Shown here in pieces: positions 2,435 to 17,971 of a stretch of 64,000 bases of DNA. Source of the stretch: a virus (taxonomy: Duplodnaviria > Caudoviricetes); IMG/VR virus record IMGVR_UViG_3300027805_000006, one strand, 5' to 3'. The translations under genes and the position numbers were made by a program. Numbering within the stretch: position 1 is the first letter of the stretch; every line of letters begins with the position of its first letter. A model generated the notes under the pieces. That model saw only the letters and a program-made list of their open reading frames with translations, ran no database searches and was not told the origin of the DNA.

Positions 2435-2511
2435 AGTGGGAGTTTGTAAGATATACGAGAAGGGGATTAATCCCCCTCTCTGATTTTAAAAATTATTGTT
2501 AGAAATATGAA

Positions 2512-2655
2512 TTATTTCTCTGGAAATTCAAGTACGAGCCTGTATATTAACAGGTCAATTACTATACAGGAATGTTCTACTCCGTTATCTTCATGTTTCT
2601 GGACATATTCTATTCCAAGCGCTGCGCCTGTTATAAAACACCCAGATATAATCAT
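2512..2655 (-). CDS. small hypothetical protein (47 aa, MIISGCFITGAALGIEY...)
   Basis: Below the ORF-track cutoff; translated by hand; abuts the upstream small ORF. Confidence 0.6.
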   Translation of the reverse strand: MIISGCFITGAALGIEYVQKHEDNGVEHSCIVIDLLIYRLVLEFPEK

Positions 2656-2658
2656 AAC

Positions 2659-2763
2659 TTACTTCTTAAACCAAGCCAAAACAATAGGCTTGAACTTATT
2701 GTAAAGCATCATCCAAAATGGAGCGAATGCTGTTCCAATTGCAATTCCGATAATAAAATCCAT
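2659..2763 (-). CDS. small membrane peptide (34 aa, MDFIIGIAIGTAFAPFWMMLYNKFKPIVLAWFKK)
   Basis: GGAGG Shine-Dalgarno before ATG; hydrophobic. Confidence 0.65.
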   Translation of the reverse strand: MDFIIGIAIGTAFAPFWMMLYNKFKPIVLAWFKK

Positions 2764-2807
2764 ATTTCCTCCGTAAAAAGCAACGACCTTTGCTGCCTTA
2801 GCAATAT

Positions 2808-3896
2808 TTATTGATTACCGCGCGTATTTTTAAAAACAAAAGAGTATGCCGCTGTCTTCTTCAATTCACCATATGGAATATCAGATGGCTTCAAAATTCC
2901 TTTGTTTAGTTTTCCTTCAAGCAGCAACTCAATCACTGCAACTCCAGTACCAGAAGTTGTAAGTTCAAGAGCAGTCAAACCTAGTTCTTCTTCGGGCAGG
3001 AAGTGAATACCTGCAGAAGCCATTTTTCCATTGACATCTTTTGCTACTGCTGCTAGCACCACAGTGTCGTCACGGGTGGTAGGAAATTTTTTCTTTGCGT
3101 CCTCAACTGCTTCTTCAAAAGAAAAGTTTTCGTTATTCAAAAAATTCTTTAGCAGCGGTTTGATGGTATTTTCTAAATGACCTTGATGACGTAGAGTTTT
3201 ATATTCCACATTAGGAATATGTGGATACGCTGCTAGGTCACCTACGCCGCCCGATGTGGTAAAGCCTTCATAGATAATTCCATCAACAAGAAGTTCTTCT
3301 CTCTCGATAAGAGGATCGACTACCTGTAGGGCGCCGTTTCTTTTTCGCTTTGCGGGTTTAATATACTCGTTAATCAGACCTTCTGGCGACCAAGTAATAG
3401 CATAGTAGTCAGGACCAAATGCCACTCTAGGAAGAGCACCTACTCGCAGGTCAAGAGAATGAGGCGTTCCGAGATTTGAGAAGAGGTCTAGACCAATATA
3501 ACTTACCAGCCCAGGTGCTAGGCCTGTCTGAGGGACAAATGTTGAAGAAACGTCAAGTGATGAAATGAATTCAGTTACTTGATTATCCTCGGTAAAATCA
3601 ACGTAATCAACTGCCCTAGACGCAGCAATCTGAGCAACGGTGGTGTTAATGTTGAATGGAGTAGAGCAAACAACTACCTTCGGGCGAACTATGTCAAAGC
3701 ACTGTTCTAGTTCTTCTTTAGAAGAGGCAACAAATGTTTTGATGTCCTTAGAGTACTGCTTGACGCTTTCAATAGCAGCGGGTAGTGTATCTACTACATA
3801 GATTTCACCAATTTTTAGGGTGTTTGCAATTTTTATAAGCGCTAAACCAACTCTACCTGCACCAACTACAAGTATCCGTGCCATAATGGGCTCCAA
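2808..3896 (-). CDS. saccharopine dehydrogenase-like NAD(P)-dependent oxidoreductase
   Basis: GAGRVG Rossmann motif, GLAPG, ITWSPEGLINEY, YKTLRHQGH. Confidence 0.85.
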   Translation of the reverse strand: MEPIMARILVVGAGRVGLALIKIANTLKIGEIYVVDTLPAAIESVKQYSKDIKTFVASSKEELEQCFDIVRPKVVVCSTPFNINTTVAQIAASRAVDYVDFTEDNQVTEFISSLDVSSTFVPQTGLAPGLVSYIGLDLFSNLGTPHSLDLRVGALPRVAFGPDYYAITWSPEGLINEYIKPAKRKRNGALQVVDPLIEREELLVDGIIYEGFTTSGGVGDLAAYPHIPNVEYKTLRHQGHLENTIKPLLKNFLNNENFSFEEAVEDAKKKFPTTRDDTVVLAAVAKDVNGKMASAGIHFLPEEELGLTALELTTSGTGVAVIELLLEGKLNKGILKPSDIPYGELKKTAAYSFVFKNTRGNQ

Positions 3897-3947
3897 AAGA
3901 AATTCTACATTCCTTATTTACCCGGCACAAAAATACATTTCAACAGG

Positions 3948-4184
3948 TTAGAATTTCCACGTTGTCCCAATGAAGGAAGTTTCAGCAGATTTTACTGAAA
4001 ATTCAAGCATGCATAAAGCATGCACTTCATTTAAAACTCCTACGCGTTCCTCAAAGGAATATGTTGGCAAGTCAGTTAGGTAAGAATAGCCTGCAAGGTG
4101 ACGAAGCCTATCTTCTGTCGCACCACGAACCTTGATTTTTTCAACCTCTGTCATACGATTGAAAATTTGCTGGGCTTTCTGCAT
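3948..4184 (-). CDS. hypothetical protein
   Basis: ORF with upstream AGGAG SD. Confidence 0.65.
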   Translation of the reverse strand: MQKAQQIFNRMTEVEKIKVRGATEDRLRHLAGYSYLTDLPTYSFEERVGVLNEVHALCMLEFSVKSAETSFIGTTWKF

Positions 4185-4238
4185 TTCTTACTCCTGTAAA
4201 GTTCAGGAGTTATAGTAACACATTTTACGACCTGATTT

Positions 4239-4709
4239 TTACTTTTTTAGACCTTCAAAGTAGCGTGTGCTTCCATCAGGCATTCTCTTTGCCGTTAAGA
4301 CTTGCTGTCTGTTTCCGGCAATATTGTAAGAAATATGAACCCACCCGTCATTTGGTCCCTTTTCGTGGTCGTGAAACTCCAGAATAAGTTGATCAAATTC
4401 AAGTGTTTCTGAAATCCACTGTGCAAGAACGCAGTTATCAACATCATAGATCTCGATATCAGCAGCCTGCCCATTGCAGTGCTGGCTAGTGGCAGATCCA
4501 CCCACTGCCTTATTGAGGGCTGGGCTTCTGTAGCCAGAAGATACCATCACTGGCTTCTGCCAAACGTCCTTAATTTTTTCAAGAACATTTTCACATAGGG
4601 CGATCATATTTTGCAGGTGCTCTTCAGATGGTTGATTTGAAATGCCAAGTCTAGAAGCAGTTTGACTTTTAGTCATCTCTGAAAGGTGAAAATTGCTAGA
4701 AAGCCACAT
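4239..4709 (-). CDS. peptidase M15A-family peptidoglycan hydrolase (candidate endolysin)
   Basis: SSGYRSPALN..VGGSATSQH..GQAADI...WVHISY. Confidence 0.9.
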   Translation of the reverse strand: MWLSSNFHLSEMTKSQTASRLGISNQPSEEHLQNMIALCENVLEKIKDVWQKPVMVSSGYRSPALNKAVGGSATSQHCNGQAADIEIYDVDNCVLAQWISETLEFDQLILEFHDHEKGPNDGWVHISYNIAGNRQQVLTAKRMPDGSTRYFEGLKK

Positions 4710-4768
4710 AGTATTCTCCTTTAAACTATTCGAGATATTTAGTGTATCTGTAAGTTTTTTAAACTTCT

Positions 4769-5026
4769 CTACTTGTACAGAGATCTAAGTTTTTCCTTTG
4801 CACCCTCAAGGCGCTTAATATCATCAGAGGATAGGTTTATCCCGGCTCGATTGATATAAAAGTTTAGCCTTGACATTGCCTGTTTAAGATCTTTACTTTC
4901 AGCCTTTAGCCCTGTTGCGATTGCAGTAGAAGACTTGGTAAAAAATCCTTCAGGTGGGTGCCATTTTTCCTTGACGGATGCGCTCCATTTTTCCTCATTA
5001 AGCGCCAGTAGTTGCTTAAGCAGCAT
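4769..5026 (-). CDS. DUF3175-like protein
   Basis: AMSRLNFYINRAGINL...RLEGAKEKLR resembles the DUF3175 signature as recalled; not searched. Confidence 0.6.
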   Translation of the reverse strand: MLLKQLLALNEEKWSASVKEKWHPPEGFFTKSSTAIATGLKAESKDLKQAMSRLNFYINRAGINLSSDDIKRLEGAKEKLRSLYK

Positions 5027-5078
5027 AGTATTCTCCCTTTGTTTTTATTCTTTTAAGAAGAGTGGTTTAACCACAGAT

Positions 5079-5798
5079 CTATTTATCTGGCAACTGTCTC
5101 AGTTTTGCAAGTTTGAAAAATTGAAATACCTTAAACCACGCCCAGCCGGCGTCAAATTCCCACCACTTCCTGCTCAATTTTGGGTTTGCTGGATCTAGGT
5201 GGTGATTGTTATGCAGGCACTCTCCACCAATTAAAATGCCAAGTGGGAAAATATTTTTGCTGCTATCACCTGAACTGCCATTGGTGTATCCCCACTTATG
5301 GCCAATTCCATTGATAACGCCTGCTGCCCAGAATGGTATCCAGATCATTTGAACTGCCCACACAAGAACACCAAGAGTATCAAAAAGAACAACATCGATG
5401 AGCAGCATCAGTAAAATACCAAGGCAGTTGAACCTGGTGTAGATGTGTTGTTCTACCCAGTCATCAGGAGTTCCAACACCAAATGATTGAACAAGTCTCT
5501 TGTCTTCCGTTCCTTTTGCATACAGAAAAGCACCGCCAAACAGAACTTTCCAGATGCCAAAAACAACAGGGCTGTGGGGATCTCCAGGTTTATCGGTTGA
5601 ACTATGGTGCTTTCGGTGAATTGCTACCCATTCCTTTGTTACCATTCCTGTGGTAAGCCAAAGCCAGAAGCGCATAAAGTGAGCAAGAACTGGGTTAAAA
5701 ACAATTCCTTTGTGCGCCTGTGACCGGTGAAGGTAAAGAGTAACGCAGACTATCGTAATATGAGTTGCTATAAGAGTAAAAATAACGGCAGCAAGCAT
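5079..5798 (-). CDS. membrane fatty-acid (delta-9-type) desaturase
   Basis: Three His boxes HRSQAH, HRKHH, HNNHH, plus transmembrane segments. Confidence 0.92.
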   Translation of the reverse strand: MLAAVIFTLIATHITIVCVTLYLHRSQAHKGIVFNPVLAHFMRFWLWLTTGMVTKEWVAIHRKHHSSTDKPGDPHSPVVFGIWKVLFGGAFLYAKGTEDKRLVQSFGVGTPDDWVEQHIYTRFNCLGILLMLLIDVVLFDTLGVLVWAVQMIWIPFWAAGVINGIGHKWGYTNGSSGDSSKNIFPLGILIGGECLHNNHHLDPANPKLSRKWWEFDAGWAWFKVFQFFKLAKLRQLPDK

Positions 5799-6467
5799 TT
5801 ACTTTAGTCCTAACCGCACCAGCACTGCCTTGATAAACGGGTGGTGGGCTGAGAACTCTGGATCGTGACTAATGTTGGTAATGTACTCAAGAAACTGCGC
5901 GATGTGCTCCACGCTTTGGAAGCGATGGTACAGGTCGTATGAAGCAGTTGCTGCAGCGCCAATCATCTGAACCTTTTGCAGCGTTTCAGCAGAAAATAAT
6001 TCAGGGTCAAGATTTGAAATTTGATAATCAAATTTTGAGCAACTTTCATTTATACCTCTCAGGGCTCGCTGCATATCACCGAAAAAATGATTTGATAGAG
6101 AACCGCTGGCATCTGATAGAATAGCAACTGCATCTTCTACCTGCTCTTCGTGTTCTTGATTGCCTTCACGTAGATCAAGAGAAAGATGGAGAGGAGAATA
6201 GTCAAAATCATCAAAATTGCCATCGTCCAACTGGTCATTGAGGTACCTAGATATCTTCTTAAGAAGAGCAAGTTTACTTCCTACGCTTTCGCTGACAACA
6301 GTTGAGGTATCACCAGTAGATTGTTCTTGACCAATCTCTATACCAATAACACCTAACTTTAGTTTTGGTTCCTTTGCTGCAGCGACAGTTGCCTTATGTA
6401 CCTGCTTGGTTAATTTCTTTGTTGCCTTCATACCAGAAGGGGTAAGACCTAATTGATTAAGTTTCAT
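5799..6467 (-). CDS. hypothetical protein
   Basis: ORF track 5799..6578; likely start MKLNQ at 6467 after TAAATA at 6490-6495. Confidence 0.7.
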   Translation of the reverse strand: MKLNQLGLTPSGMKATKKLTKQVHKATVAAAKEPKLKLGVIGIEIGQEQSTGDTSTVVSESVGSKLALLKKISRYLNDQLDDGNFDDFDYSPLHLSLDLREGNQEHEEQVEDAVAILSDASGSLSNHFFGDMQRALRGINESCSKFDYQISNLDPELFSAETLQKVQMIGAAATASYDLYHRFQSVEHIAQFLEYITNISHDPEFSAHHPFIKAVLVRLGLK

Positions 6468-6489
6468 TTTATTACTCTTGCGAATAGAA

Positions 6490-6495
6490 TATTTA
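6490..6495 (-). promoter_or_regulatory. late promoter-like TAAATA (one of a divergent pair)
   Basis: Core of the T4 late consensus TATAAATA; recurs before many genes in the window. Confidence 0.6.
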
Positions 6496-6541
6496 TTGTG
6501 TAAATCTACCGTGGCGCAGTATTTGTGTGAAAACTGCAACA

Positions 6542-6547
6542 TAAATA
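6542..6547 (+). promoter_or_regulatory. late promoter-like TAAATA for the radical SAM operon
   Basis: 33 nt upstream of ATG 6580. Confidence 0.6.
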
Positions 6548-6579
6548 CAATATTCGCCACCCTAGTACCAAAGCGCACA

Positions 6580-7515
6580 ATGTATAATTTCCAAGAACTC
6601 CAGGAATTTTCTCACAAGAATGCCAATACGTTTAGTTATGGTGGCAGGATTTTGGGTGCAAAACAACTAGGAGAAACCATAGAATTTCACTACTCTCCTG
6701 TTTCAAGAATGGTTGGAACTTTCAAAGAAGAGTGTTTTAATGTAGCAAAACTGTGTCAGGAAAAAGCAAATTTAATGAACAGAACGCCTGCTGTTATGCT
6801 TTCTGGAGGAATGGATAGTCATGTAGTACTTTCATCATTTGTAGAACAGGGGTTGGAATGTGTTCCAGTTATGTCACTCATTAAATTGAATGGTCGTAAT
6901 TTGTCAGAACACGAACAGTTCTACGCTGAAAAGATTTGTAATTATTTTGGATTGAAGTTAGAAAAAACAGATGTTAATCTTGAATGGATTTCATCTAATG
7001 AAGCATTTTCAATTTATTCAAATGTCGGCGCTTTTGGGATAATGAGACTCGTGCATAACAAGGCTGATACGTTTGCTTGGAATGAACTGAATGGAATGGC
7101 GGTATATGGAAATGGAGATATAGTTATTGATAATAAACTACAGACTTGGTGCTTAAGACAACTGGGTCAATATCAAGTTCCTTTTAAATGTGGTCTATTA
7201 GAAAATAAAGTAAATGTCAGTATTTTCTTTCAACACACACCAGAGATACTTGCATCTTTTCTAAATGAGGGCATTATCAAAATGGTAACAAAATTAAAGT
7301 CGCCAGAAGAATTTACTGAATTTAGATTTGTAAAATACCAAGTGTATAGAAAACATTGGCCTTTTTTGGAAATGAGGCCTAAATTTTCAGGCATGGAAAA
7401 ATGCAAAATATTTTTTGATAAAGCAAGAGAAGATTTTTGCAGCAGACTGAATGTAATATATGATGACTTTTGGTATAAACCTATTGACCAAATTAACAAA
7501 ATTCTAATACCATAA
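6580..7515 (+). CDS. PP-loop (asparagine-synthase C-terminal-like) adenylating enzyme
   Basis: MLSGGMDS PP-loop; paralog of 9445..10359 (FFQHTPEI motif shared). Confidence 0.75.
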   Translation: MYNFQELQEFSHKNANTFSYGGRILGAKQLGETIEFHYSPVSRMVGTFKEECFNVAKLCQEKANLMNRTPAVMLSGGMDSHVVLSSFVEQGLECVPVMSLIKLNGRNLSEHEQFYAEKICNYFGLKLEKTDVNLEWISSNEAFSIYSNVGAFGIMRLVHNKADTFAWNELNGMAVYGNGDIVIDNKLQTWCLRQLGQYQVPFKCGLLENKVNVSIFFQHTPEILASFLNEGIIKMVTKLKSPEEFTEFRFVKYQVYRKHWPFLEMRPKFSGMEKCKIFFDKAREDFCSRLNVIYDDFWYKPIDQINKILIP

Positions 7516-7519
7516 ACAT

Positions 7520-8911
7520 ATGAGACACCTTATTATTTTAAATGGAATTTGGCCGTGGCCTGGTCAAAATTCTGCTTGGGCAATTAATCGATCGATGGGT
7601 GCATACCAAATCAGACACTGGCTTAAAAAATTTGGATTTAGCGTTCAAGTGATAGACTTTTGTCAAATTTTAACGGTAAGAGAAATTAAAACGCTACTAG
7701 AGCAGTTTATAGGAGATGAAACTTTTGCTGTTGGTTTTTCAACTACCTACTGGCCAAAAATTGGATCAGCACCATCAAATATGACTGAAACAATTAGTTG
7801 GCTACGAAGCAATTATAGTCAAATTAAATTAGTTGGTGGTGGGATGGGGAAAAAGACATTTGACTCTCTTTTTGATGTTGTTTTTGTGGGTCAGTCTGAG
7901 GACGCATTTGTTTCTTGGTGTCAGCAGCAAATTGGAAAATCAAATAAATCATTATTCAATAAAAAATTCAATATCACTGAACTTGATCATAAGTTTCAAC
8001 TAGAAGACTGTATTCTCCCGTTTGAAGTACTGCCAATAGAACTTGGTAGAGGCTGCATTTTTAAATGCAAGTTTTGCGCGCATCCAAATTTAGGAAAACC
8101 TAAATTTACCTATCAAAGGCATTTTGATCTAATTATTGATGAGATGAAGTATAACCATCAGCAGTTTGGCGTAACTCGTTATAACTTTATGGATGATACG
8201 GTAAATGAAGACATTGAAAAGGTAGAAAATCTTTCACGACTTCCTGATAGTTTAGGGTTTGAAATAATGTGGAATGGTTATCTTCGTGCCGATTTAATAT
8301 GGTCACGAAAGGGAACCGATGCTATGTTAAAACGCAGTGGGATGAAAACGTGTTATTTTGGTATTGAGACTTTTAATCCTGCAGCGGGCAAAGCAATTGA
8401 CAAAGGCTGGGGTGCAAAACACGGGAAAGAATACTTGCCTCACCTATATGAGAATGTATGGCAAAAAGACATCAACATTAGAATAAATTTTATAGTCGGG
8501 TTACCCGGTGAGAGTTTAGAAAGCAGCGAAGAAACATTTAACTGGTGTATGCATCAAGACTTTGGTATGTCTCAATTTACTGCTTTAGATATCTATGAGG
8601 CAAATGCGGGAGAAATAACTTCAGAATTTAGTAGAAATTATAAAGAACACGGGTATGTGCTTACTAATCCCGGTTGGAAAAATGAATTTATGACTTCACA
8701 ACAGGCTGCTGATGCCGCCCTAAGATTTAACAAAGAATTGGGAATGGTAAATAAAGTATCAAGTTGGCCGCTATTTAGTGTTATTTCTCTTGGAACAGAC
8801 TATGAAATTGCTAGGCAAATGAAAGTTGAAGAACTTTATAATTTTCCATTTGCTGTTGTACAAAAGTTTAAACAGCAATACATTAGTAAATTAAAGCAAC
8901 TAAAAGAGTAA
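7520..8911 (+). CDS. radical SAM protein with N-terminal cobalamin-binding-like domain
   Basis: IELGRGCIFKCKFC (CxxxCxxC), FMDDT, YLRADL, FGIETFN, FIVGLPGE. Confidence 0.88.
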   Translation: MRHLIILNGIWPWPGQNSAWAINRSMGAYQIRHWLKKFGFSVQVIDFCQILTVREIKTLLEQFIGDETFAVGFSTTYWPKIGSAPSNMTETISWLRSNYSQIKLVGGGMGKKTFDSLFDVVFVGQSEDAFVSWCQQQIGKSNKSLFNKKFNITELDHKFQLEDCILPFEVLPIELGRGCIFKCKFCAHPNLGKPKFTYQRHFDLIIDEMKYNHQQFGVTRYNFMDDTVNEDIEKVENLSRLPDSLGFEIMWNGYLRADLIWSRKGTDAMLKRSGMKTCYFGIETFNPAAGKAIDKGWGAKHGKEYLPHLYENVWQKDINIRINFIVGLPGESLESSEETFNWCMHQDFGMSQFTALDIYEANAGEITSEFSRNYKEHGYVLTNPGWKNEFMTSQQAADAALRFNKELGMVNKVSSWPLFSVISLGTDYEIARQMKVEELYNFPFAVVQKFKQQYISKLKQLKE

Positions 8912-8912
8912 T

Positions 8913-9452
8913 ATGGGAAAACATTTCCTGCATCTTAACTTTCCATTTGACATCGATATGTCGGAAATGGTGTATAGGGAAGCCGCTAATCAAAAAGATG
9001 AAATACAATTGTTTCCAATAAATGCAAGAAAAATAAACACCCAATTAATTGATGTTTTAAACAAAGTTGGAATTTTTGTGCCTCACGCAATTATATTTGT
9101 GACACAACCTAAAGCACATCTTTTCCCACACTCAGACCGGGCTGGAGCAAAATTAAATGTCATTTATGGAAAAAAGGGAAGTAGAATGTTTTGGTGGAAT
9201 ACTACAGCCACACCGAATTATCACAAGACAAAAGTTCATACTGATTATTGGCAGGTGCCTTTAGATCAATGTAAACTAATTGAATCAACAGAAATAGGTA
9301 TAACACTTGTTGATTCAGATGCTATACATTCTGTTATGAATAGCACAAATGAGCCAAGATACGCGCTGAGCATAAACTTAAGAGATAAAAATGGAAATAT
9401 GATACCTTTTTTAGATGCCGCAAAGAGACTAAAAGGATTTAAAAATGATTGA
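8913..9452 (+). CDS. putative Fe(II)/2OG-type dioxygenase (cupin fold)
   Basis: PHSD...IHSV...PRYALS fits an HxD..H..R pattern. Confidence 0.6.
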   Translation: MGKHFLHLNFPFDIDMSEMVYREAANQKDEIQLFPINARKINTQLIDVLNKVGIFVPHAIIFVTQPKAHLFPHSDRAGAKLNVIYGKKGSRMFWWNTTATPNYHKTKVHTDYWQVPLDQCKLIESTEIGITLVDSDAIHSVMNSTNEPRYALSINLRDKNGNMIPFLDAAKRLKGFKND

Positions 9453-10359
9453 ATACACGCAAAACAATAAAATAAATTTTGACTATGGCGGAGAAATGTT
9501 TGGAGATAAGACGTTAGGCTCTACACTAAAATTTAATCTGGCACAATGCACACGACGTCCTAAATCTTTTAAAGAGGAATGCTATGACGTTGCCCGTATT
9601 TTAAATGAAAAAGCAAAACACCAAGGAAGGGTTCCAACGATCTTGCTTTCTGGTGGGTTAGACAGCGAGGTTGTGTGCAAGGCATTTATTGAACAGGATA
9701 TACCCTTTGAGGCTGTAACTTTTAGGTTTGAAAATGAACTAAATCGGCACGAAATTCATTTCGTTAATAAATTTTGCGAAAGACACGGAATAAAGACAAG
9801 ATTTTTTGATATGGATGCCGTGTCTTTTATCAACTCAAGTGCTGCTCTTGAATTATACCTAAAGACCCGTTGTGCAAGAACTATTATGCTGCCGCATATG
9901 CTACTAATATCTGAAGTGTGGAATAATGGCGGAATGCCAATAGTTGGTGGTGGAGATATTGTTATTCACAATAGTAATGGGTGGAAATTTTGCAAATATG
10001 AGTATATGCTTTCTTGGTTTATCCACTCATTAAATGAAAGTATAGATGGGGGAGTAGCATTTTTTCAGCATACTCCAGAAATAATACTAGCAATGCTAAA
10101 CGAAAAAGAGATTATGTGGGCAACAGATCCAAAAAACATAAATGCAAGAATACTAAAGGATGTGCGGTTAGAAAAATATAAAACGTATCATCGTATTTGG
10201 CCAGATTTTGAAAAGCGGCCAAAATACTATGGAATTGAACTTGTATTTGATTTGTATATGCGAAAAATGTTTGAGTTTGATAAGCACCGGCAAATTCAGT
10301 ATGATGGAACTTGGGAAATAGATTTAGCAGAAGCCAGAAAAATTGTTGAACCTATCTAA
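9445..10359 (+). CDS. PP-loop (asparagine-synthase C-terminal-like) adenylating enzyme
   Basis: LLSGGLDSEVV; paralog of 6580..7515. Confidence 0.75.
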   Translation: MIEYTQNNKINFDYGGEMFGDKTLGSTLKFNLAQCTRRPKSFKEECYDVARILNEKAKHQGRVPTILLSGGLDSEVVCKAFIEQDIPFEAVTFRFENELNRHEIHFVNKFCERHGIKTRFFDMDAVSFINSSAALELYLKTRCARTIMLPHMLLISEVWNNGGMPIVGGGDIVIHNSNGWKFCKYEYMLSWFIHSLNESIDGGVAFFQHTPEIILAMLNEKEIMWATDPKNINARILKDVRLEKYKTYHRIWPDFEKRPKYYGIELVFDLYMRKMFEFDKHRQIQYDGTWEIDLAEARKIVEPI

Positions 10360-11833
10360 CTGTTGTGACTAGACTAATATTGTCCATTAGGTGAGGTAAG
10401 TTAAAGTGTTTAGAGAACTGTGTTATGTACTTCAACTTGAATTTGTTTGTCTCTATTAGATCTACATCTGGCATCTCGCGTTTCTTCGTGCTTAACACTG
10501 TTTGCATATCATAGCCCATATTAATACCATTAGCAACACTCCACGATGAAACTCTACATCTTGGATTTGTTGCAAGCATTGCCGTATCAGAAAGTTGTTT
10601 TGCAATATGTGATGTTGCATATGGTGATTTCCAGTGCCAATATCCATCTTCTGTTTTTTCAGTTAAGAAAAAACCCAGTTCATTTGCATTTTTTGAAATA
10701 TCTGATCGGTGATCTTTTTTCCCATCTGTTGGAGGTGGCATAACAACAAAACTTCTAAAGGTTATTCTTCCCATTGCGTGTTGGTTCCACCAGCGTATGT
10801 TATCATACACGTCGGTAACTGGATCATGTGGAAGTCCAATTATCATACTGACACACAAATTTATTTTTTTGCCCCAAATATCAGAATAAAGTTTGGGTAG
10901 CCAGTCCTTTGCGTGTTTTGCTGACCACCCCTTTCCAATGTATTGCGCCGCCTTTTTATTAAAAGTTTCTATCCCTAAGAATGGTGAAACTAGACCGCTC
11001 TGCTGTAGGTGTTCGGCGCTTTCTGGTTTTGACCAAATTAAATCCGCGCGGCAGTACCCAACCCACTGTATTGGAAATCCAAGATCTTTTTCAAAATTTG
11101 CAAACCTTGCAACCTTATCGTAGTCTTCATTCGCTGTGTCATCCATAAACATATATTTGTCAGTGCCAAACATATCTTTATTGTACTTCATTTCATCAAC
11201 AAGCAACTGATGCTGTCTTAGGTATGAACCTTTTTCCTTGCCAATTAAAGAATAACTACAAAATTTGCACTTAAAAATACATCCTCTTCCAAGTTCGATT
11301 GGCAGCATTTCACCAGAAATAATCACATCATCGGGTATAAATCGATGATTTAAATCTTTAATGTCAAATGACGGATTAAGTAAAGAAACCCCATGCTTCT
11401 TTTCTTGACACCATTTTAAAAATTCATCTTCTCCATATCCAACAAATGATGCGGCAACAGGAACTCTTGGATCTTCTAAACCGGAGTATTGATATTGTCC
11501 TCCTGTCACTATTTTCAATTTTGGAAATTTTTCTTTTAACTTTTGTATTGCTAGAACAATGTTATCTGACCAAAGTGCCGTTGGTCCCAAAAATGTTCTG
11601 CTAAGTCCTAAGCATATTGTTTTTTCTGATATGAAAGGCTCTGTTAGTGCCACAAGTTCATCATCTTCCATAAGGTGGGCGAACTCAATAACCTGAACCT
11701 TGAAGCCATGTTTTCTCAACCAATATGCAAGTTGATATGCTCCCATTGGACGGGAAAGAACTGGGTGTCTGTCCTTGTAACCATACCTAGTTGCTGCTTT
11801 TATTCCAGACCATAAAATGATATCGCGGTGCAA
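10352..11833 (-). CDS. radical SAM protein with N-terminal cobalamin-binding-like domain
   Basis: IELGRGCIFKCKFC, FMDDT, YCRADL, LGIETFN; probable TTG start at 11833 with GGAG SD (ORF track extends to 11905). Confidence 0.88.
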   Translation of the reverse strand: MHRDIILWSGIKAATRYGYKDRHPVLSRPMGAYQLAYWLRKHGFKVQVIEFAHLMEDDELVALTEPFISEKTICLGLSRTFLGPTALWSDNIVLAIQKLKEKFPKLKIVTGGQYQYSGLEDPRVPVAASFVGYGEDEFLKWCQEKKHGVSLLNPSFDIKDLNHRFIPDDVIISGEMLPIELGRGCIFKCKFCSYSLIGKEKGSYLRQHQLLVDEMKYNKDMFGTDKYMFMDDTANEDYDKVARFANFEKDLGFPIQWVGYCRADLIWSKPESAEHLQQSGLVSPFLGIETFNKKAAQYIGKGWSAKHAKDWLPKLYSDIWGKKINLCVSMIIGLPHDPVTDVYDNIRWWNQHAMGRITFRSFVVMPPPTDGKKDHRSDISKNANELGFFLTEKTEDGYWHWKSPYATSHIAKQLSDTAMLATNPRCRVSSWSVANGINMGYDMQTVLSTKKREMPDVDLIETNKFKLKYITQFSKHFNLPHLMDNISLVTTVR

Positions 11834-11858
11834 AATTATCTCCACATTATTATGCAGG

Positions 11859-11884
11859 TATTTATCTGCTGTTTTTAGTAAATA
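11859..11884. promoter_or_regulatory. divergent pair of late TAAATA motifs
   Basis: TATTTA at 11859-11864 (minus strand) and TAAATA at 11879-11884 (plus strand). Confidence 0.6.
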
Positions 11885-11905
11885 TTTCGTAAAAGGAAAA
11901 AACAA

Positions 11906-12679
11906 ATGTCCTATAATACAATTTCAAAAAATGAACTGCTTAGTGTTCTGCAGCGAAATAGAAAGAAACTATTTTTAGATAAGTCAGTTTGGTGCAGAAC
12001 TCTTCAATTGCTAAAACTGGAACAGCAACTTGGAAATATACTCTACTTACCTTTAGATATTGAGCCGCTTCTTGATGATAAGGAAGAACAACTTTTCAAA
12101 GAATGGTTTTTTGAAGTATCAAAACCTATTAAAAAGTACAACTCAACTACAGGGCTTCAATGGGGAGAAAACAATAATCCATATGACGCTATTACAACAC
12201 CGGATTTATCTGACAATGTTTATCATCAAAATCCTGTAGAAATTGATAAATTTTTTCCTGGAATAAAAAAGAAACTAAAGCAACTTCCATTTAAAGAAGT
12301 TCCAGAATACAGGATATGGAGTTCTAGAACAGAAATTCCAATTCACCGAGATGCTTGGTATCCGCTTGACGTTCCAAGCAGTTTTAGATTTATGCTCTTT
12401 GATGAAAATCCAGAAAGCACTTTCTGGCTTCAGGAAGATTTTAGGGATGGCAGTAATGAAAGATTTTTTATTCCAAAGCACAAGTGTTTTTCTTGGAATA
12501 ATCTAAGAACTACTCACGGCTCTGTATTCTCACCGCAATACAGGAAAGCACTTCTTATACCTGCACCCGTTGAATTTGATTTAAGGGAGTTTCGAAAGTT
12601 AATTATTAGGAGTGTAAAAAAATATGAAAATCAAATTGTTTATAGCAGTAAAAAAATAAATGATTTTATTGATGCTTAG
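11906..12679 (+). CDS. putative dioxygenase-like protein
   Basis: IPIHRDAW...THGS...RKALL fits HxD..H. Confidence 0.55.
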   Translation: MSYNTISKNELLSVLQRNRKKLFLDKSVWCRTLQLLKLEQQLGNILYLPLDIEPLLDDKEEQLFKEWFFEVSKPIKKYNSTTGLQWGENNNPYDAITTPDLSDNVYHQNPVEIDKFFPGIKKKLKQLPFKEVPEYRIWSSRTEIPIHRDAWYPLDVPSSFRFMLFDENPESTFWLQEDFRDGSNERFFIPKHKCFSWNNLRTTHGSVFSPQYRKALLIPAPVEFDLREFRKLIIRSVKKYENQIVYSSKKINDFIDA

Positions 12680-13221
12680 ATGAACCCATATTTTTCAAAT
12701 TTTTTTGCTACTAAATTAAATGGGATGGAAAACCAACTGAACTGAATAAAAGAACGAGTTTCGCCTTCTGGTATATCAACGCTGTGTATTTTTGAAATGT
12801 TTAAAAGATATGCATCATCTTTTTCAGCGGTAAAACTAGAAATTTCTTCAAGGTCTTTTGGATCATACTGGTTAGGAACTTTATGATGATCAGCAAGATT
12901 TTCAGAATAGTACTTGCTCATTACAGGTTTTGCCTTTGGTTTTATTTTCCAAAATCTAGTTATTCCCTTTCCTGGTCCTATGTAGATATTAAGTTTTGCT
13001 GAAGCATCTACATCAAAATGTGGAACAAAAGAATTATATGCTTCTGACAAACAAATCTGCTCTGGAGAAAGAATTCTCAGTTGCTCTGGAGAAAAGAGTG
13101 TATAAAGCCTTTTTATTTTAAACTTATGAATTGAACTCCCGCGCCAAAGAAATTCGCCTTTATAGGCATCTACACTTTCAGACTGTATTTTAAATTTTGT
13201 TTTTATAAATGAAGGATACAT
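12676..13221 (-). CDS. putative Fe(II)/2OG-type dioxygenase (cupin fold)
   Basis: PHFD..AKLNIY...IHSV...RSFIQ. Confidence 0.6.
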   Translation of the reverse strand: MYPSFIKTKFKIQSESVDAYKGEFLWRGSSIHKFKIKRLYTLFSPEQLRILSPEQICLSEAYNSFVPHFDVDASAKLNIYIGPGKGITRFWKIKPKAKPVMSKYYSENLADHHKVPNQYDPKDLEEISSFTAEKDDAYLLNISKIHSVDIPEGETRSFIQFSWFSIPFNLVAKKFEKYGFI

Positions 13222-13228
13222 CCAATTT

Positions 13229-13738
13229 TCAATCCTTTATTAAGCGCTGCTGCTGTCTTGTAAGTCCTTCAGATAACTCCTTAAGATTTTTTGGTTTTTC
13301 AATAGGTTGCTTACTTAGATCTGGTTTTATATTTACTGGTGCTGGAGGAGGTGGTTTTACCTCTGCTTTAGGAGTAGCCTTTTCACCAACACTTGGCACA
13401 GGTACTACAGGTGCAGGAGTGGGTGCTGGAACCGGAGTTAGTTCTGGAACTGCAGCGACTGGAGGTGACGGCATAATCAGCGCTCTTGGTCTTTCAACTG
13501 GAACAGTCTTCATTCTGTCCTGAAGAATTACAAGCATTGCCTGCTGAAATCCTACCAACTGTGCGAGTTCTTTTTGGAGATCAGCGTTCCTCTGTTCTAA
13601 TTTTTTAATTTCTTCTGTTAGGCGCTCATCCTTTGCGTACCGCTCATCTATTTTGAAAAGAAGGGGTATTGAGACGGTCAAAGATGAAATGACAGCCGCC
13701 AGCGTTGCTGGAATTCCTATTTTTCTTAATAGTTCCAT
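13229..13738 (-). CDS. membrane-anchored coiled-coil, Pro-rich protein
   Basis: N-terminal hydrophobic helix, coiled coil, then PAPTPAPVVPVP tract. Confidence 0.7.
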   Translation of the reverse strand: MELLRKIGIPATLAAVISSLTVSIPLLFKIDERYAKDERLTEEIKKLEQRNADLQKELAQLVGFQQAMLVILQDRMKTVPVERPRALIMPSPPVAAVPELTPVPAPTPAPVVPVPSVGEKATPKAEVKPPPPAPVNIKPDLSKQPIEKPKNLKELSEGLTRQQQRLIKD

Positions 13739-13747
13739 ATTGTTGTC

Positions 13748-14080
13748 TCACACTGAAAAACTAGAACCACAGCCGCAAGTAGTAGAAGCATTTGGGTTAT
13801 TGATGGTAAAACTACTTCCCAGCAGTTCTTCCTTGTAGTCAATCTCAGCACCTGCAAGGTAGGTTTCGCTCATCGCATCAACTACTACCTTTATTTCCCC
13901 AAGATCGACTTCAAAATCGTCTTCGTGCTGCTCTTCATCAAGGGTAAAGCCAAACTGAAATCCTGCGCAGCCACCACCCTGTACGAATGCCCTTAGTTTT
14001 AGGTTAGGGTTTCCTTCAGATGTGATGATGTCAAAGATTTTTTGCTTTGCTTCAGGGGAAACTGTTAATTGAGACTGCAT
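13748..14080 (-). CDS. erpA: A-type Fe-S cluster insertion protein (ErpA/IscA family)
   Basis: [17 protein letters not shown] ... [14 protein letters not shown]. Confidence 0.93.
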
Positions 14081-14115
14081 TTGTTGGTCCTCTAATATGG
14101 TTATGGGTTTAGAAA

Positions 14116-14550
14116 TTACTTATTCAGTGAAAAAACTACATCATATTCATATCGCAATGGCTTAATAATTTGAATTAAATTACAACTGTAGTCAAGTGCA
14201 ACTCTTAGGGTTATATCTCCAACTAGTGGGCCATACGATAATGGTAAAACTTGATCAACTATATCTGGTTTTACTTGATTCATTTTTTGCACTTGGCCTG
14301 CAGTAACATGGACTGCTGGAAGTGTCTCTACCTGCCCTTCATGAATGACTTGGCGATAAATGTCGACGTCGCAGAAGCGGTGACGTTTAAATCCATATGT
14401 TAGCATAATTCGGTTATTATGTATTTTTGCTGTAGCCTCACCAGTATATTCTCCAGGCAGAGATGTATCAAGCAACATGTAGACAATGCTTATCACAAGC
14501 GCAAGGCTTGGTACCCAAATTAATTTGTAGAGATAATCTAAGCGTGACAT
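14116..14550 (-). CDS. hypothetical membrane-anchored protein
   Basis: N-terminal transmembrane helix; two Cys. Confidence 0.7.
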
Positions 14551-14552
14551 TG

Positions 14553-14828
14553 TTATTGACCACCAGCCCTAATAACATTCTTTAGTGTATCCCATACCGT
14601 AGTAATGCCGATTAAAATCGCTGCTATCCACGTTACGACTGAAAGTGTTTGCTTTGCTAACCATTTGCGGCGGCCATCCTCTTCAATCATCTTACGAATA
14701 TATTTCATCTCATCGGCAGTTAACATATTTTCGGAATGATCTAGTTGGCGGCGGCGCTCGGGGCCATTATAATTGTCTGAGTCTTTGCGGACTCGGCGTT
14801 CTATAAATTCTTTTTCGTCTCTTGACAT
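14553..14828 (-). CDS. hypothetical membrane protein, possibly lysis-related
   Basis: PERRR motif and C-terminal transmembrane helix; ORF track extends to 14933. Confidence 0.6.
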   Translation of the reverse strand: MSRDEKEFIERRVRKDSDNYNGPERRRQLDHSENMLTADEMKYIRKMIEEDGRRKWLAKQTLSVVTWIAAILIGITTVWDTLKNVIRAGGQ

Positions 14829-14963
14829 TTTAATGCTACCTTTCAGCGTGCGGTTAATTATGGGTTTATTCCATATTTTGAAAGCACCTTTAAAAGGCGG
14901 CTGGTGTCTAGATCGCTTGAATTCTTTTTTCAAGAGTTTTTACGTAGTCGTAAAAGATGCTCT

Positions 14964-15008
14964 TTTAAAGTATTATTTAAAGTATTATTTAAAGTATTAT
15001 TTAAAGTA
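14964..15008. repeat. 12-bp tandem repeat TTTAAAGTATTA x3.75
   Basis: Read directly from the sequence. Confidence 0.95.
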
Positions 15009-15010
15009 CT

Positions 15011-15829
15011 TCACTTATTTTCATCTAAAACACAAAGATGATTTAGTATATTTATTACTTTGCTATCATTTGCAATGGTATAGCGAGGCTTAAATGTACC
15101 CAGTTGAACTGAAATATGAACAGAAGTTAGTTGATGATCCTCTACTTCTCGGTTTAAAGGATTAATTTTAGATAGTTCAATTGCTACCTTGCGGTATCGT
15201 GAAACGTTTGATGGGCAAAGATAGTTGGCATTGGTATCTACGATTGCGGCTGCAAACTTGCGTGCCAACTGCTTATCAAGTGAAACAATCAGGTGTGAAA
15301 CAATAACACTTGGGGAACTTGACTTGCCAACCTCTGGAGAAACAATTAGACGTATGTTAAGACACATTGTTGTAAGTGCCATACCTGTCACCGGTGTTGA
15401 AATTTTCCAAGATACGCTAAGGTCACGAGAATTTGTTTTCCCGTCCGGGAGTGGGAAAACCGATTGAATTAGTTGCTCAGCAACATTTCCCTTTTCAATA
15501 TGCTTATGTAGAATAATTACTTCTCTGCCTGCGTCAATTAGTTGTTCAAGTTCAGTTGCAACTTCCTTCAAAAACCACTTTGTTCGGGTTTCAAGAGGAA
15601 TAAGTCTATTCTTTTCTAACCGCCCTCCGCCGCGCGGTACTATTTCTCCGCCGTGCCAGATTGCTTTCTTGTTGTTTGGATATGGTTGCATCTGAAAGAA
15701 ATTATCAATGATGACACTTGCCTTAAAGGTCAAGTCATACTTCTTAGCTGCGAGAGTCTTAAAGTACTGAAGAAAGCGATTGCCCTCAAGAAGAGGTGCT
15801 TCTTTGTCAGTGAGTGTTTTTGCTAGCAT
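15011..15829 (-). CDS. hypothetical protein
   Basis: 272-aa ORF. Confidence 0.75.
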   Translation of the reverse strand: MLAKTLTDKEAPLLEGNRFLQYFKTLAAKKYDLTFKASVIIDNFFQMQPYPNNKKAIWHGGEIVPRGGGRLEKNRLIPLETRTKWFLKEVATELEQLIDAGREVIILHKHIEKGNVAEQLIQSVFPLPDGKTNSRDLSVSWKISTPVTGMALTTMCLNIRLIVSPEVGKSSSPSVIVSHLIVSLDKQLARKFAAAIVDTNANYLCPSNVSRYRKVAIELSKINPLNREVEDHQLTSVHISVQLGTFKPRYTIANDSKVINILNHLCVLDENK

Positions 15830-15843
15830 ATCACCCTTCTAAG

Positions 15844-15872
15844 CAAGTACTGGGCCATTTGGCCCAGTACTT
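15844..15872 (-). terminator. intrinsic terminator-like hairpin
   Basis: AAGTACTGGGCC-ATTT-GGCCCAGTACTT downstream of the lipoprotein gene. Confidence 0.7.
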
Positions 15873-15886
15873 TATTCATTTAGTTA

Positions 15887-17401
15887 TTAACCTCCAACCA
15901 CCACCAGTTCGGTAACCTTTCGATCACCCGTCTTGATGGTGCCGTGATCAACAACATTACCAGTATCAAAGTTCAACTCAATGATCTTGGTATCGCTGTT
16001 CGCAGTAGAGACTGCTCCCCAAAGCATTGCCTTGTCCTTGAACATTTCAAACTTGCGGCCAGCACTAAAGAAGTATCCAATGCTGTCAGTATTGAAGTGC
16101 TTCATGGTGTTGGTAGCAACGTTCAGGCGGGAGAAGATGTTGCCAGAACCATTTACACAGAAGGCGTTTTCTCCTTCGAGGCGGGCGTATGTAGCACCTT
16201 CAGCAACTGCAACTGAAGCACTGGCACTTTCGCCGGGTCGGGTAAGAAGATTGTAGGCACCAGTGGTGGTGTTCCAAACCAGGCAACGATCAGACATTAC
16301 CCACTCCCCAAACCGGCCACGAACACCGTAGGAACCAGGAACGCGAAGTTGCGCAGGTGTCCATTCAGTGTAGGAGTTGGTGCTGAGGTTAAGTTGGCGC
16401 ATATACTGCGAGTATTCAAGCCATACAAAATTGCCTGCGGCATCAAGCATAACACCAGAACCGGGGTACTTTGAAGCAGGAATTTCAGGGCTACCCATCG
16501 CGGTGCTGATGATCTTGAATGCCTTCGAGTTTGCGTCGAGTGCCAGCACTACATCTGAACGCTGGGTAGAGGTAGCAACCAACCAATTTCCATTGTAGGC
16601 GAGGAAGCCAACGCCTGTCTTGATTGGGAGGCTTTCCTCAGTTAGCGTCTTGAGAGTAACCTTGCCATCATCAGCCACGGCAAGCGTGCGTACATGGCCA
16701 GACTTGAAGACTAGAACTGCAGTATCAGAACTGTTGAATGCTTGATCGCCTGCTTCAAGCACGTGGGAAATCTGATCCCCATCCACTTGGACTTCTACAG
16801 TTGCGCCGGATGAAGTAATGACATACATAGCATCCTTGTACGTAACCGTGCAGTTAGCATTAATGACAGAAGGAACCGTCAACTTGCCCAGCATGTGGCC
16901 CTTACCAGGATGCACGTCCCACAGACGGTGAATTCGTGCTTCAGCAGTTGAAGTATCACAGTGGGTAATCAAAGCGCCATTTGCATCACGAAGGTCAAGA
17001 TTTAGCGTAACCAACTTGCCGCCTTGAATCTTGTTGGTAAAACCAAAGTTCGAGCCAGGATTGACCTTTACTGAGGTGTTGGCATATGCCGTACCTGCAA
17101 AAGTGCTGGTGGCATCAAACATAAAGCGCTTCAGGAAACTATCCAGGAAGCCGACAACAGTGGATGAAGTAGCAGTCTGGGCAAGAACGTCATTCGTCTT
17201 GATGTCCATACCAACCAGACTGACATTGACTGCAGTAGGAGAAGGGGCGGCGGCGGTAGCAGGAGGAGTGCTAGTGCCACCTGAAGTGCCACCTGAAGAA
17301 GTTGCGGGTGCAGGGGCAGATCCACCACCACCGCCACAGGCAGAAAGGATGGCAACTGACATTGCAGCCAGAGCAAAACGAGCGGTGCGAGAAGTCTTCA
17401 T
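15887..17401 (-). CDS. large lipoprotein
   Basis: Signal peptide with lipobox LSAC, Gly/Ser/Pro linker, beta-rich body. Confidence 0.85.
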   Translation of the reverse strand: MKTSRTARFALAAMSVAILSACGGGGGSAPAPATSSGGTSGGTSTPPATAAAPSPTAVNVSLVGMDIKTNDVLAQTATSSTVVGFLDSFLKRFMFDATSTFAGTAYANTSVKVNPGSNFGFTNKIQGGKLVTLNLDLRDANGALITHCDTSTAEARIHRLWDVHPGKGHMLGKLTVPSVINANCTVTYKDAMYVITSSGATVEVQVDGDQISHVLEAGDQAFNSSDTAVLVFKSGHVRTLAVADDGKVTLKTLTEESLPIKTGVGFLAYNGNWLVATSTQRSDVVLALDANSKAFKIISTAMGSPEIPASKYPGSGVMLDAAGNFVWLEYSQYMRQLNLSTNSYTEWTPAQLRVPGSYGVRGRFGEWVMSDRCLVWNTTTGAYNLLTRPGESASASVAVAEGATYARLEGENAFCVNGSGNIFSRLNVATNTMKHFNTDSIGYFFSAGRKFEMFKDKAMLWGAVSTANSDTKIIELNFDTGNVVDHGTIKTGDRKVTELVVVGG

Positions 17402-17558
17402 TTGGTATTTCTCCAGTTTTCCAGTTTTTCCTGAGGGATTACCCCTCCTGTGATTGCTGCAGACCCGCTGCAGCGACGGTAAAGATATTATAACCTGAAT
17501 TCAGAAAAAGAACATCATTGAATTGTAACTGTTTCATTGGTGTAACAAGTTTCTTGTA

Positions 17559-17882
17559 TCAGGCGGTGTTAAGGGTGGCACCGATGGTCTTGGTTATTTC
17601 ACGCTCACGGGCGTGGGCTTCAGCCTTTCCACGTACTTTCTCGAGGACCTCAGTCGAGAATGCCTCTGGTCCAAAGGTACGAATGGCTTCACACAGTTTC
17701 CAGCCTTTGTTATGCCGAAGGGCTCGGGTTACGTGCCTTTGCCAGCGACCTTCGACTGCCTTCTTCGGGGTATTCCCGGCACAGACGGTCAAACCAATGT
17801 AGATTTCATCTGTTGGAATGCAGGTAACTTGGTAGATAACGTGCATTCTGTCTGACCGGAGTTTTCTCTTTGTCTGTCGCAT
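17559..17882 (-). CDS. GIY-YIG nuclease-family protein
   Basis: HVIYQV...EIYIGLT...RWQRH...EAHARE...LN. Confidence 0.8.
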   Translation of the reverse strand: MRQTKRKLRSDRMHVIYQVTCIPTDEIYIGLTVCAGNTPKKAVEGRWQRHVTRALRHNKGWKLCEAIRTFGPEAFSTEVLEKVRGKAEAHAREREITKTIGATLNTA

Positions 17883-17888
17883 GAATGC

Positions 17889-17918
17889 ATTATACATCAA
17901 CCTGGGGGAAGATGTAAG
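17889..17918 (-). promoter_or_regulatory. sigma70-type early promoter
   Basis: CTTACA-18 nt-TATAAT. Confidence 0.55.
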
Positions 17919-17923
17919 AAAGA

Positions 17924-17949
17924 TTGTAACAATCCTTAGATTGTTACAA
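17924..17949 (-). terminator. perfect inverted repeat, terminator or operator
   Basis: TTGTAACAATC-CTTA-GATTGTTACAA, followed by TCTTTCTT on the minus strand. Confidence 0.6.
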
Positions 17950-17971
17950 CCAAAAGTAATAAATTTGTAAT

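Follow-up and report, generated by a model that had tools for sequence, protein, structure and literature searches.

A modular accessory island of uncultured aquatic phages combines AsnB-like PP-loop synthetases, AspH-like cupins and a putative DesA-type desaturase with predicted B12-type radical SAM enzymes

Two published descriptions of T4-like aquatic phages come closest to the locus analysed here. Cyanomyophage Syn9 carries ten tandem 2-oxoglutarate (2OG)/JmjC dioxygenases, to which no function was assigned and for which modification of secondary metabolites or of collagen and tail-collar proteins was proposed (Iyer et al. 2010, PMC2938197). In pelagimyophages, cassettes of radical S-adenosylmethionine (SAM) genes come and go beside glycosyltransferases in a variable "host recognition cluster", and an Asp/Asn beta-hydroxylase is among the core genes of these phages; the function of the cassettes was not given, and a stearoyl-CoA desaturase was reported in the freshwater members (PMC7029224). 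A further reference is Cpz10, a stand-alone alpha-ketoglutarate-dependent beta-hydroxylase of caprazamycin biosynthesis that acts on an aminoacyl-nucleoside (PDB 7V4F; PMC9814697). The literature on the enzyme combination described below yielded nothing for phages beyond PMC2938197 and PMC7029224. Here, we analyse an enzyme block around positions 6490-14080 of a 64,000-nucleotide stretch of viral DNA (the window), which comes from the 85.8-kb IMG/VR virus record IMGVR_UViG_3300027805_000006, estimated to be 24% complete.

The block exemplifies a modular toolkit whose genes are strongly clustered but shuffled in other phages. Its core consists of stand-alone PP-loop synthetases (PP), AspH-like hydroxylases and desaturase-like enzymes, and a B12-type radical SAM enzyme (rSAM) is a frequent yet optional addition, so that the whole is not a fixed cassette. 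The observations of an earlier note on this DNA were confirmed and extended, and its interpretation was supported in part. All open reading frames (ORFs) and both paralog pairs of 6490-14080 lie where it had placed them. This holds for two paralogous B12-type radical SAM genes with an identical motif, two paralogous PP-loop enzymes of adenylating type, three HxD...H proteins, ErpA, and four TAAATA boxes forming two divergent pairs. The block is also larger than it had been described, since a putative DesA-type desaturase, previously overlooked, and a 222-aa ORF belong to it.

The two PP-loop proteins, PP1 (6580-7515, plus strand, 311 aa) and PP2 (9445-10359, plus strand, 304 aa), are 32% identical over 307 aa and carry the motifs SGGMDS and SGGLDS, respectively. 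PP1 is a member of a viral family, hereafter the PP family, that comprises at least 911 representative clusters. In a 49-sequence alignment of this family, G71 and D73 of the SGGxDS motif are invariant, and S69, G70 and S74 are nearly so. At the sequence level, PP1 gave weak QueC, tRNA_Me_trans and PP-loop matches, PP2 matched QueC with 29.1 bits and Asn_synthase with 21.3 bits, PHROGs returned weak QueC-like matches alone, and a PDB sequence search with PP2 found nothing significant. An AlphaFold2 (AF2) model of PP2 built from the 49 sequences reached a predicted local distance difference test score (pLDDT) of 96.7. Its nearest folds are the synthetase domains of beta-lactam synthetase, carbapenam synthetase and AsnB (Foldseek E 7e-6), and an Atlas search concurs, with template modelling (TM) scores of 0.65-0.71 and a family that is almost wholly viral. 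The modelled fold implies that PP1 and PP2 are AsnB/beta-lactam-synthetase-like adenylating enzymes, which would activate a carboxylate and then form an amide or a lactam.

Two narrower assignments of the PP proteins were rejected. Membership in the AsnB/beta-lactam-synthetase family proper agrees with the synthetase fold, but the N-terminal glutaminase domain is missing and the Asn_synthase score is low. As QueC, the proteins score 28.2 and 15.8 bits against the TIGR00364 cut-off of 150.3, with an alignment confined to the PP-loop region. Their QueC, TilS and MnmA scores all fall far under the cut-offs and cover the PP-loop motif only. Elsewhere, members of the PP family are fused to, or stand beside, GNAT and SAM-methyltransferase domains. 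At loci L050 and L051 (5256-8246 and 7477-10467), a 662-aa PP-family protein lies between GNAT acetyltransferase genes, with RtcB, PTH2-like and cpYpsA genes nearby. An extreme local expansion is seen at locus L103 (IMGVR_UViG_3300032242_001655), where eight PP paralogs follow one another in tandem on one strand, ahead of a desaturase-like gene.

The radical SAM proteins rSAM1 (7520-8911, plus strand, 463 aa) and rSAM2 (minus strand) are predicted B12-domain (class B type) enzymes that share 37% identity over 458 aa as well as the motif LPIELGRGCIFKCKFC. With 39.3 and 44.6 bits, respectively, both lie above the PF04055 cut-off of 29.5 bits, and their Pfam B12-binding scores of 20.2 bits (rSAM1, E 5.6e-4) and 13 bits (rSAM2) lie under the cut-off of 32.1. 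The only cysteines that are invariant in a 64-sequence family alignment are C179, C183 and C186 of the radical SAM motif CX3CX2C, which makes an auxiliary cluster in rSAM1 unlikely. An AF2 model of rSAM1 from this alignment reached a pLDDT of 94.2, and its 17 best PDB matches all have the B12-type architecture, namely TsrM, MgmA, OxsB, CysS, AprD4 and TokK, with TM-scores of 0.51-0.61 over the whole model and 12-17% identity. The model thus predicts a B12-type radical SAM architecture for rSAM1, with an N-terminal Rossmann-type domain before the radical SAM barrel. A PDB sequence search with rSAM1 gave no significant match, and CobS_N was not detected in five related records. All NCBIfam scores of the rSAM proteins are far under the cut-offs, the best being 71.9 bits against 600. 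Longer fused forms of rSAM are limited to two distant giant multi-domain proteins.

As called, the rSAM2 ORF extends to a TTG at 11905 (10352-11905), which would place the TAAATA box at 11859 inside the gene. A TTG at 11833 has a GGAG upstream and lies 25 nt from this box, the usual spacing. The N-terminus that it would produce, (M)HRDIILWSG, aligns with MRHLIILNG of rSAM1. For these reasons, rSAM2 most likely starts at TTG 11833 rather than 11905 and occupies 10352-11833.

Three proteins of the block contain an HxD...H triad that is invariant in their family alignments. For cup1 (8913-9452, plus strand, 179 aa), the PF05118 match (E 5e-4, 20.4 bits) falls slightly short of the cut-off of 22.6 bits, and cup3 (12676-13221, minus strand, 181 aa) belongs to the same family, in which H73, D75, H139 and a downstream R149 are invariant. 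The profile of this family had no significant match in a PDB sequence search; it aligns with the PF05118-bearing AspH family of phages (hhalign 95.7%, E 1e-8), and we regard cup1 and cup3 as predicted small AspH-like Fe(II)/2OG cupins. The third protein, cup2 (11906-12679, plus strand, 257 aa), is a probable double-stranded beta-helix oxygenase with invariant H147, D149 and H204. It matches the AspH profile weakly (18%, E 1.3e-3), and its Atlas structural matches to AspH and 2OG families reach TM-scores of 0.45-0.52 from a model with a pLDDT of 0.57. Outside the block, a fourth AspH-like cupin of 165 aa (43492-43989, minus strand) matches both the AspH and the cup1 profiles. It is overlapped by 4 nt by the end of a gene for a 548-aa Ala/Gly/Lys-rich protein of no family (43986-45632, minus strand), which has two TAAATA boxes ahead of it; the two may form an enzyme-substrate pair.

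To the left of PP1, a leftward unit begins with the 222-aa ORF (5799-6467, minus strand, ATG at 6467), which has no Pfam, PHROG or NCBIfam match. Its stop is abutted by the start of the desaturase gene (5079-5798, minus strand, 239 aa), whose product is a predicted DesA-type membrane fatty-acyl desaturase (PF00487, E 3.9e-14) with the His boxes HRSQAH, HRKHH and HNNHH and hydrophobic segments. Against the DesA family NF049918 it scores 390.5 bits (cut-off 400) and covers model positions 9-243 of 385, with the C-terminal third absent.

The right-hand end of the block is formed by a minus-strand unit that contains ErpA (13748-14080, 110 aa), an A-type iron-sulfur (Fe-S) carrier. ErpA matches PF01521 with 64.6 bits and the NF010147 equivalog with 150.6 bits (cut-off 117), displays the cysteine signature C38...C102-G-C104 (C...CGC), and is placed by PHROGs in an unnamed family. 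Upstream of it are the genes of two small membrane proteins with hydrophobic segments (14116-14550 and 14553-14933), for which no family was found in Pfam or NCBIfam. Downstream follow a membrane-anchored 169-aa protein (13229-13738), made up of an N-terminal membrane helix (hydrophobic segment 7-32), a coiled-coil and a Pro-rich tail, to which Pfam assigns coiled-coil noise only, and cup3 as the last gene. ErpA had been proposed as the cassette's own Fe-S carrier. As a description of this phage's layout the proposal is correct, and the protein itself is real. It does not carry over to other phages: in the other 20 radical-SAM locus groups, no ErpA homologue was found within 10 kb of rSAM. A PF01521 protein lies 25-80 kb from rSAM in three of five large rSAM-bearing records (four of five at a weaker threshold). 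Even in the window, ErpA shares its transcription unit with cup3, not with a radical SAM gene. It may reasonably be assigned a supporting role in Fe-S loading.

The genes PP1-rSAM1-cup1-PP2 are separated by gaps of 4 nt and 1 nt and then an overlap of 8 nt, and this operon is translationally coupled. PP2 on the plus strand and rSAM2 on the minus strand also overlap by 8 nt. One divergent pair of TAAATA boxes lies at 6495-6490 (minus strand, 22 nt before ATG 6467) and 6542-6547 (plus strand, 32 nt before ATG 6580), and the other at 11864-11859 (minus strand, 25 nt before TTG 11833) and 11879-11884 (plus strand, 21 nt before ATG 11906). Ahead of the 14553-14933 gene, upstream of the ErpA unit, a 77-nt gap contains the 12-nt unit TACTTTAAATAA repeated about 3.5 times in tandem (14963-15009, minus strand). 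Three TAAATA boxes at even spacing result from this repeat and form a triple promoter-like array of an unusual kind.

Of the TAAATA copies within the 60 nt upstream of 90 called genes of the window, 22 are in sense and three in antisense orientation, compared with 6.2 +/- 2.5 (maximum 16) in 1000 composition-matched shuffles. The core also precedes fibre-like genes. The full octamer TATAAATA, which in T4-type late promoters stands about 20-40 nt ahead of genes whose late timing depends on gp55/gp33, occurs three times in the window, which equals chance, and only the TAAATA core is conserved. Between 4 and 16 kb, there is no enrichment of sigma-70-type sites, and the block has no clear internal terminator. 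Judged from their distribution, the TAAATA boxes probably behave like real promoter elements. Since they are enriched and orientation-specific, late expression of the block is plausible from this motif. The box at 6490 would drive the 222-aa ORF and the desaturase, which are probably co-regulated with the PP/rSAM operon through the divergent promoter region. In total, five units would start from T4 late-promoter-type boxes, running from 6467 to 5079, 6580 to 10359, 11833 to 10352, 11906 to 12679, and about 14933 to 12676. A freshwater metatranscriptome (one run, assembled contigs) compared with window positions 1-20000 covers the block thinly and patchily, in a form from which timing, strand and transcript ends cannot be read and in which DNA carry-over is possible.

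To place the block in context, the neighbourhoods of its families were surveyed with family profiles in other viral records. Starting from the radical SAM protein, 35 viral loci were fetched, which collapse to 21 non-redundant groups counting the window. The PP family is present in 8, the PF05118 AspH family in 12 and desaturase-like genes in 8 of these 21 groups. A second, viperin/MoaA/QueE-like radical SAM family occurs in 8, and TauD, QueC-like (a 206-aa family) and metallophosphoesterase genes occur in a few. Many of these loci have several rSAM copies, and PP and rSAM usually lie on one strand in operon-like blocks, whose order and copy number differ everywhere.

A reciprocal survey starting from the PP family yielded 80 loci in 46 groups, of which 28 contain AspH, 25 desaturase-like genes, 16 the second radical SAM family and only 8 the B12-type rSAM. 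Six of these groups (L064, L066, L072, L073, L074 and L077) share a marine block composed of a desaturase-like gene, three or four further genes (190-330 aa), PP, a short-chain dehydrogenase/reductase (SDR) and two AspH genes. Of ten genes from this conserved block, Pfam recognised an SDR alone. Whole records likewise show real clustering. In a 229-kb record, 10 of 11 matches of the four families fall within 104.5-124.1 kb (20 kb), in a 193-kb record all nine fall within 116.5-144.8 kb (28 kb), and in a 524-kb record PP lies 3.5 kb from rSAM. The families reappear together in phages whose proteins are only 25-35% identical to one another. The islands also contain genes of the Rieske, haem-oxygenase-like, TauD, aminotransferase and carbamoyltransferase types, together with unrelated genes for a porin, a sigma factor, HNH nucleases and a TctC receptor. 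A functional link between the genes of the block is supported by translational coupling in the window and by the clustering of the same families in other phages. The expectation that homologues co-occur as a unit stands as far as clustering is concerned; it fails on gene order, which is shuffled, and on the B12-type rSAM, which is near PP in just those 8 of 46 groups.

Neither blastn with the block nor tblastn with PP2, rSAM1 and a marine homologue of PP gave a match among 50,697 GenBank phage records. The ErpA control query did match in the same records, hitting two genuine huge uncultured phages and other entries that look bacterial, so that genes of this kind are rare among GenBank phages. 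The rSAM family, which is almost entirely viral, counts over 600 relatives, of which nearly all come from metagenomes. In a set of one genome per species (185,579 species), two close rSAM matches were found, both on contigs of metagenome-assembled genomes and one of them island-like, with no informative cellular context. The window's rSAM protein is also present on a 330-kb contig.

The remainder of the window contains several other accessory genes. Left of the block, at 0.8-4.7 kb, are genes for a peptidase M15, a NUDIX hydrolase, an HNH nuclease and a saccharopine-dehydrogenase-like protein. The last of these (2808-3896, minus strand) and a DUF3175 gene (4769-5026, minus strand) adjoin the block, and each has a TAAATA box ahead of it. 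To the right, a 504-aa protein at 15.9-17.4 kb had been taken for a lipoprotein in the earlier note. A glycan-type block at 26476-36803 comprises a UDP-glucose-dehydrogenase-like gene, a TupA-like ATP-grasp enzyme, a SAM methyltransferase, several glycosyltransferases, a D-Ala-D-Ala carboxypeptidase-like gene (28018-28776) and a complete AsnB with glutaminase and synthetase domains. The lowest G+C content of the window (32-35% at 30-34 kb) falls in this block. Fibre-like genes lie at 52-55 kb, about 40 kb from the enzyme block at the nearest. Furthermore, the phage encodes a tRNA cluster and a tRNA nucleotidyltransferase.

The gene identities, folds, paralogy, coupling and clustering described so far are results of the analysis, whereas chemistry, substrate class and timing are inferred. 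The earlier note had found no evident substrate gene, and we reach the same result: no conserved substrate gene was found, as homologues of the 222-aa ORF, of the Pro-rich protein and of the small membrane proteins are absent from the related loci compared. The candidate substrates named in the note, the Pro-rich 13229-13738 protein among them, are not conserved together with the enzymes. A cluster for tailoring RiPPs (peptides made by ribosomes and modified after translation) or proteusin-like peptides was considered and rejected, since no precursor or non-enzyme ORF is conserved beside the enzymes in these related loci and the gene maps contain no recurrent small ORF. The earlier preference for a virion protein or peptide substrate loses ground with these results and with companion genes that are typical of small-molecule, lipid or glycan chemistry.

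The explanation we favour, tentatively and with somewhat less than even confidence, is that the block exemplifies a modular accessory island of uncultured aquatic T4-like and jumbo phages, whose enzymes act jointly on a carboxylate- and aliphatic-bearing substrate. Rather than a virion protein, this substrate would most likely be a small molecule, lipid or glycan that belongs to the envelope or metabolism of the infected cell. It is suggested by the SDR, the GNAT and methyltransferase fusions or neighbours of the PP family, the window's desaturase with its closeness to bacterial DesA, the Rieske, haem-oxygenase-like, TauD, aminotransferase and carbamoyltransferase genes of the islands, and the Cpz10-like hydroxylase family (the phage AspH profile matches Cpz10, 7V4F, with E 9e-33). 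In this scheme, PP1 and PP2 would adenylate a carboxylate for amide or lactam formation, cup1-3 would hydroxylate C-H bonds with Fe(II), 2-oxoglutarate and O2, and the two B12-domain radical SAM enzymes would alkylate or rearrange unactivated carbons. The DesA-type enzyme would desaturate acyl chains, and ErpA would help to load [4Fe-4S] clusters. A bolder version, which we consider doubtful, is that the shuffled set of virus-specific AsnB-like ligases, AspH-like hydroxylases, desaturase-like di-iron enzymes and optional B12-type rSAM builds or remodels a host-envelope lipid, glycolipid or other small molecule in late infection. This natural-product-like chemistry would diversify under host-range or superinfection pressure and depend on host cobalamin and a phage Fe-S carrier.

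Several points weigh against a joint action of this kind. Phages differ in the order, copy number and membership of the set, most PP-seeded loci lack the B12-type rSAM, and in a 177-kb record PP, desaturase and AspH lie together with rSAM 29 kb away; the particular genes combined in the window may therefore not form a single linear pathway. Accessory genes tend to gather in the variable regions of T4-like phages, and the clustering reported here was judged without a proper background model. The rSAM and PP families are far from any characterised enzyme by NCBIfam scores, and the DesA-like gene could serve membrane fluidity on its own. Oxygen sensitivity is usual among radical SAM enzymes, whereas cupins and the desaturase require O2. 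To our knowledge, there is no universal motif from which cobalamin binding could be read in a sequence, and AprD4, one of the best fold matches of rSAM1, is cobalamin-independent.

Some of these points would also fit an absence of any pathway, with independent auxiliary metabolic genes piling up in an insertion-tolerant hyperplastic region, paralogs arising by local duplication, and each enzyme having its own target, such as membrane fluidity for the desaturase or host Fe-S supply for ErpA. The shuffled order, orientation and copy number, the many unrelated genes in the islands, the record with rSAM apart from the PP group and the lack of an adjacent ErpA elsewhere are all consistent with such piling up. 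We nevertheless consider it unlikely, as translation within the PP1-rSAM1-cup1-PP2 operon is coupled, distantly related phages repeatedly carry the same three or four families together, almost all copies in 190-230-kb records fall in one 20-28-kb stretch, and the PP family is almost only viral and nearly always found beside AspH or desaturase-like genes. Modification of nucleic acids, either of phage DNA bases or of phage or host tRNA, is a quite improbable explanation. Here, TilS-, QueC- or MnmA-like PP-loop enzymes would act with radical SAM enzymes and oxygenases that elaborate a base. The best sequence matches of PP1 and PP2 are indeed the PP-loop regions of QueC, MnmA and TilS, but these cover a generic motif far under the family cut-offs, and the whole-protein fold is nearest to AsnB-type synthetases. 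The QueC-like and viperin/MoaA/QueE-like families of the islands, the one PP-GNAT locus near RtcB and PTH2 genes, and the tRNA genes of this phage point in the same direction; against them, the window showed no transglycosylase, FolE or QueD partners, and pathways of this type have no role for a desaturase or an SDR.

Protein or peptide tailoring stays a live rival, although we give it only a small chance. The cupins would beta-hydroxylate Asp, Asn or other residues, the radical SAM enzymes would C-methylate side chains, and the AsnB-like enzymes would amidate or cyclise Asp/Glu, on a virion fibre, collagen-like, packaged or host protein. Protein Asp/Asn hydroxylases are found among the relatives in PF05118, the best fold matches of rSAM1 include MgmA, which C-methylates glutamine in a protein, several related loci adjoin tail-fibre or very large genes, and the fourth AspH-like gene overlaps the gene of the Ala/Gly/Lys-rich protein. 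In addition, collagen-like and tail-collar proteins were proposed as beta-hydroxylase substrates (Iyer et al., PMC2938197), and the radical SAM cassettes of pelagimyophages lie in a tail-fibre-rich variable region (PMC7029224). What speaks for a small molecule, lipid or glycan instead is that no partner ORF or precursor-like gene is conserved, that the nearest fibre-like genes of the window are so distant, that protein tailoring does not typically involve SDR, desaturase, GNAT and methyltransferase companions, and that, among solved structures, the nearest relative of the phage AspH family hydroxylates a small molecule.

If the island does make or remodel a lipid, glycan or metabolite, this would represent widespread and unrecognised phage-driven chemistry in lakes and oceans, and infection would be tied to the supply of cobalamin, iron and oxygen. 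With about 9-10 kb, the block of the window is compact enough to serve as a practical heterologous-expression unit, which makes the proposal directly testable.

Compared with characterised enzymes, the families of the block show shared folds and low sequence similarity. The class B radical SAM structures TsrM, MgmA, OxsB, CysS and TokK, and also AprD4, have the Rossmann-type domain and the CX3CX2C barrel in common with rSAM1. In contrast to these solved enzymes, the window's family is 12-17% identical, almost entirely viral, and predicted from sequence and fold. AsnB, beta-lactam synthetase and carbapenam synthetase share the SGGxDS motif and the adenylating-domain fold with the PP proteins, which differ in their size of about 300 aa, the absence of a glutaminase domain and an identity of 12-16%, and constitute a separate virus-specific family. 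Cpz10 is a small (about 180 aa) stand-alone PF05118-type cupin and is matched by the AspH family that accompanies PP and rSAM in related phages; cup1 and cup3 of the window are only remote relatives of that family and have their own profile. Bacterial DesA phospholipid desaturases share the three His boxes with the window protein, which is about 140 residues shorter at the C-terminus and just under the family cut-off.

Among phages, the Syn9 array is a close parallel, since it likewise packs several non-orthologous Fe(II)/2OG oxygenases, members of the beta-hydroxylase family included, into an accessory island of a T4-like phage from an aquatic habitat. The window differs in that its oxygenases stand among AsnB-like PP-loop ligases, B12-domain radical SAM enzymes, a desaturase and an A-type Fe-S carrier, elements that the published description lacks. 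The pelagimyophage cassettes resemble the block in that radical SAM genes lie in a hypervariable region of T4-like aquatic phages; PMC7029224 calls them simply "radical SAM proteins" and specifies neither a family nor partners nor a function. Both the cyanophage oxygenase arrays and the pelagimyophage radical SAM cassettes have been noted for years without a function. With the results presented here, such arrays acquire a definable core of a virus-specific AsnB-like ligase, AspH-like cupins and desaturase-like enzymes, into which B12-type radical SAM enzymes plug. The block is thus a variant of the known phage oxygenase arrays, built on two virus-specific families without a characterised member.

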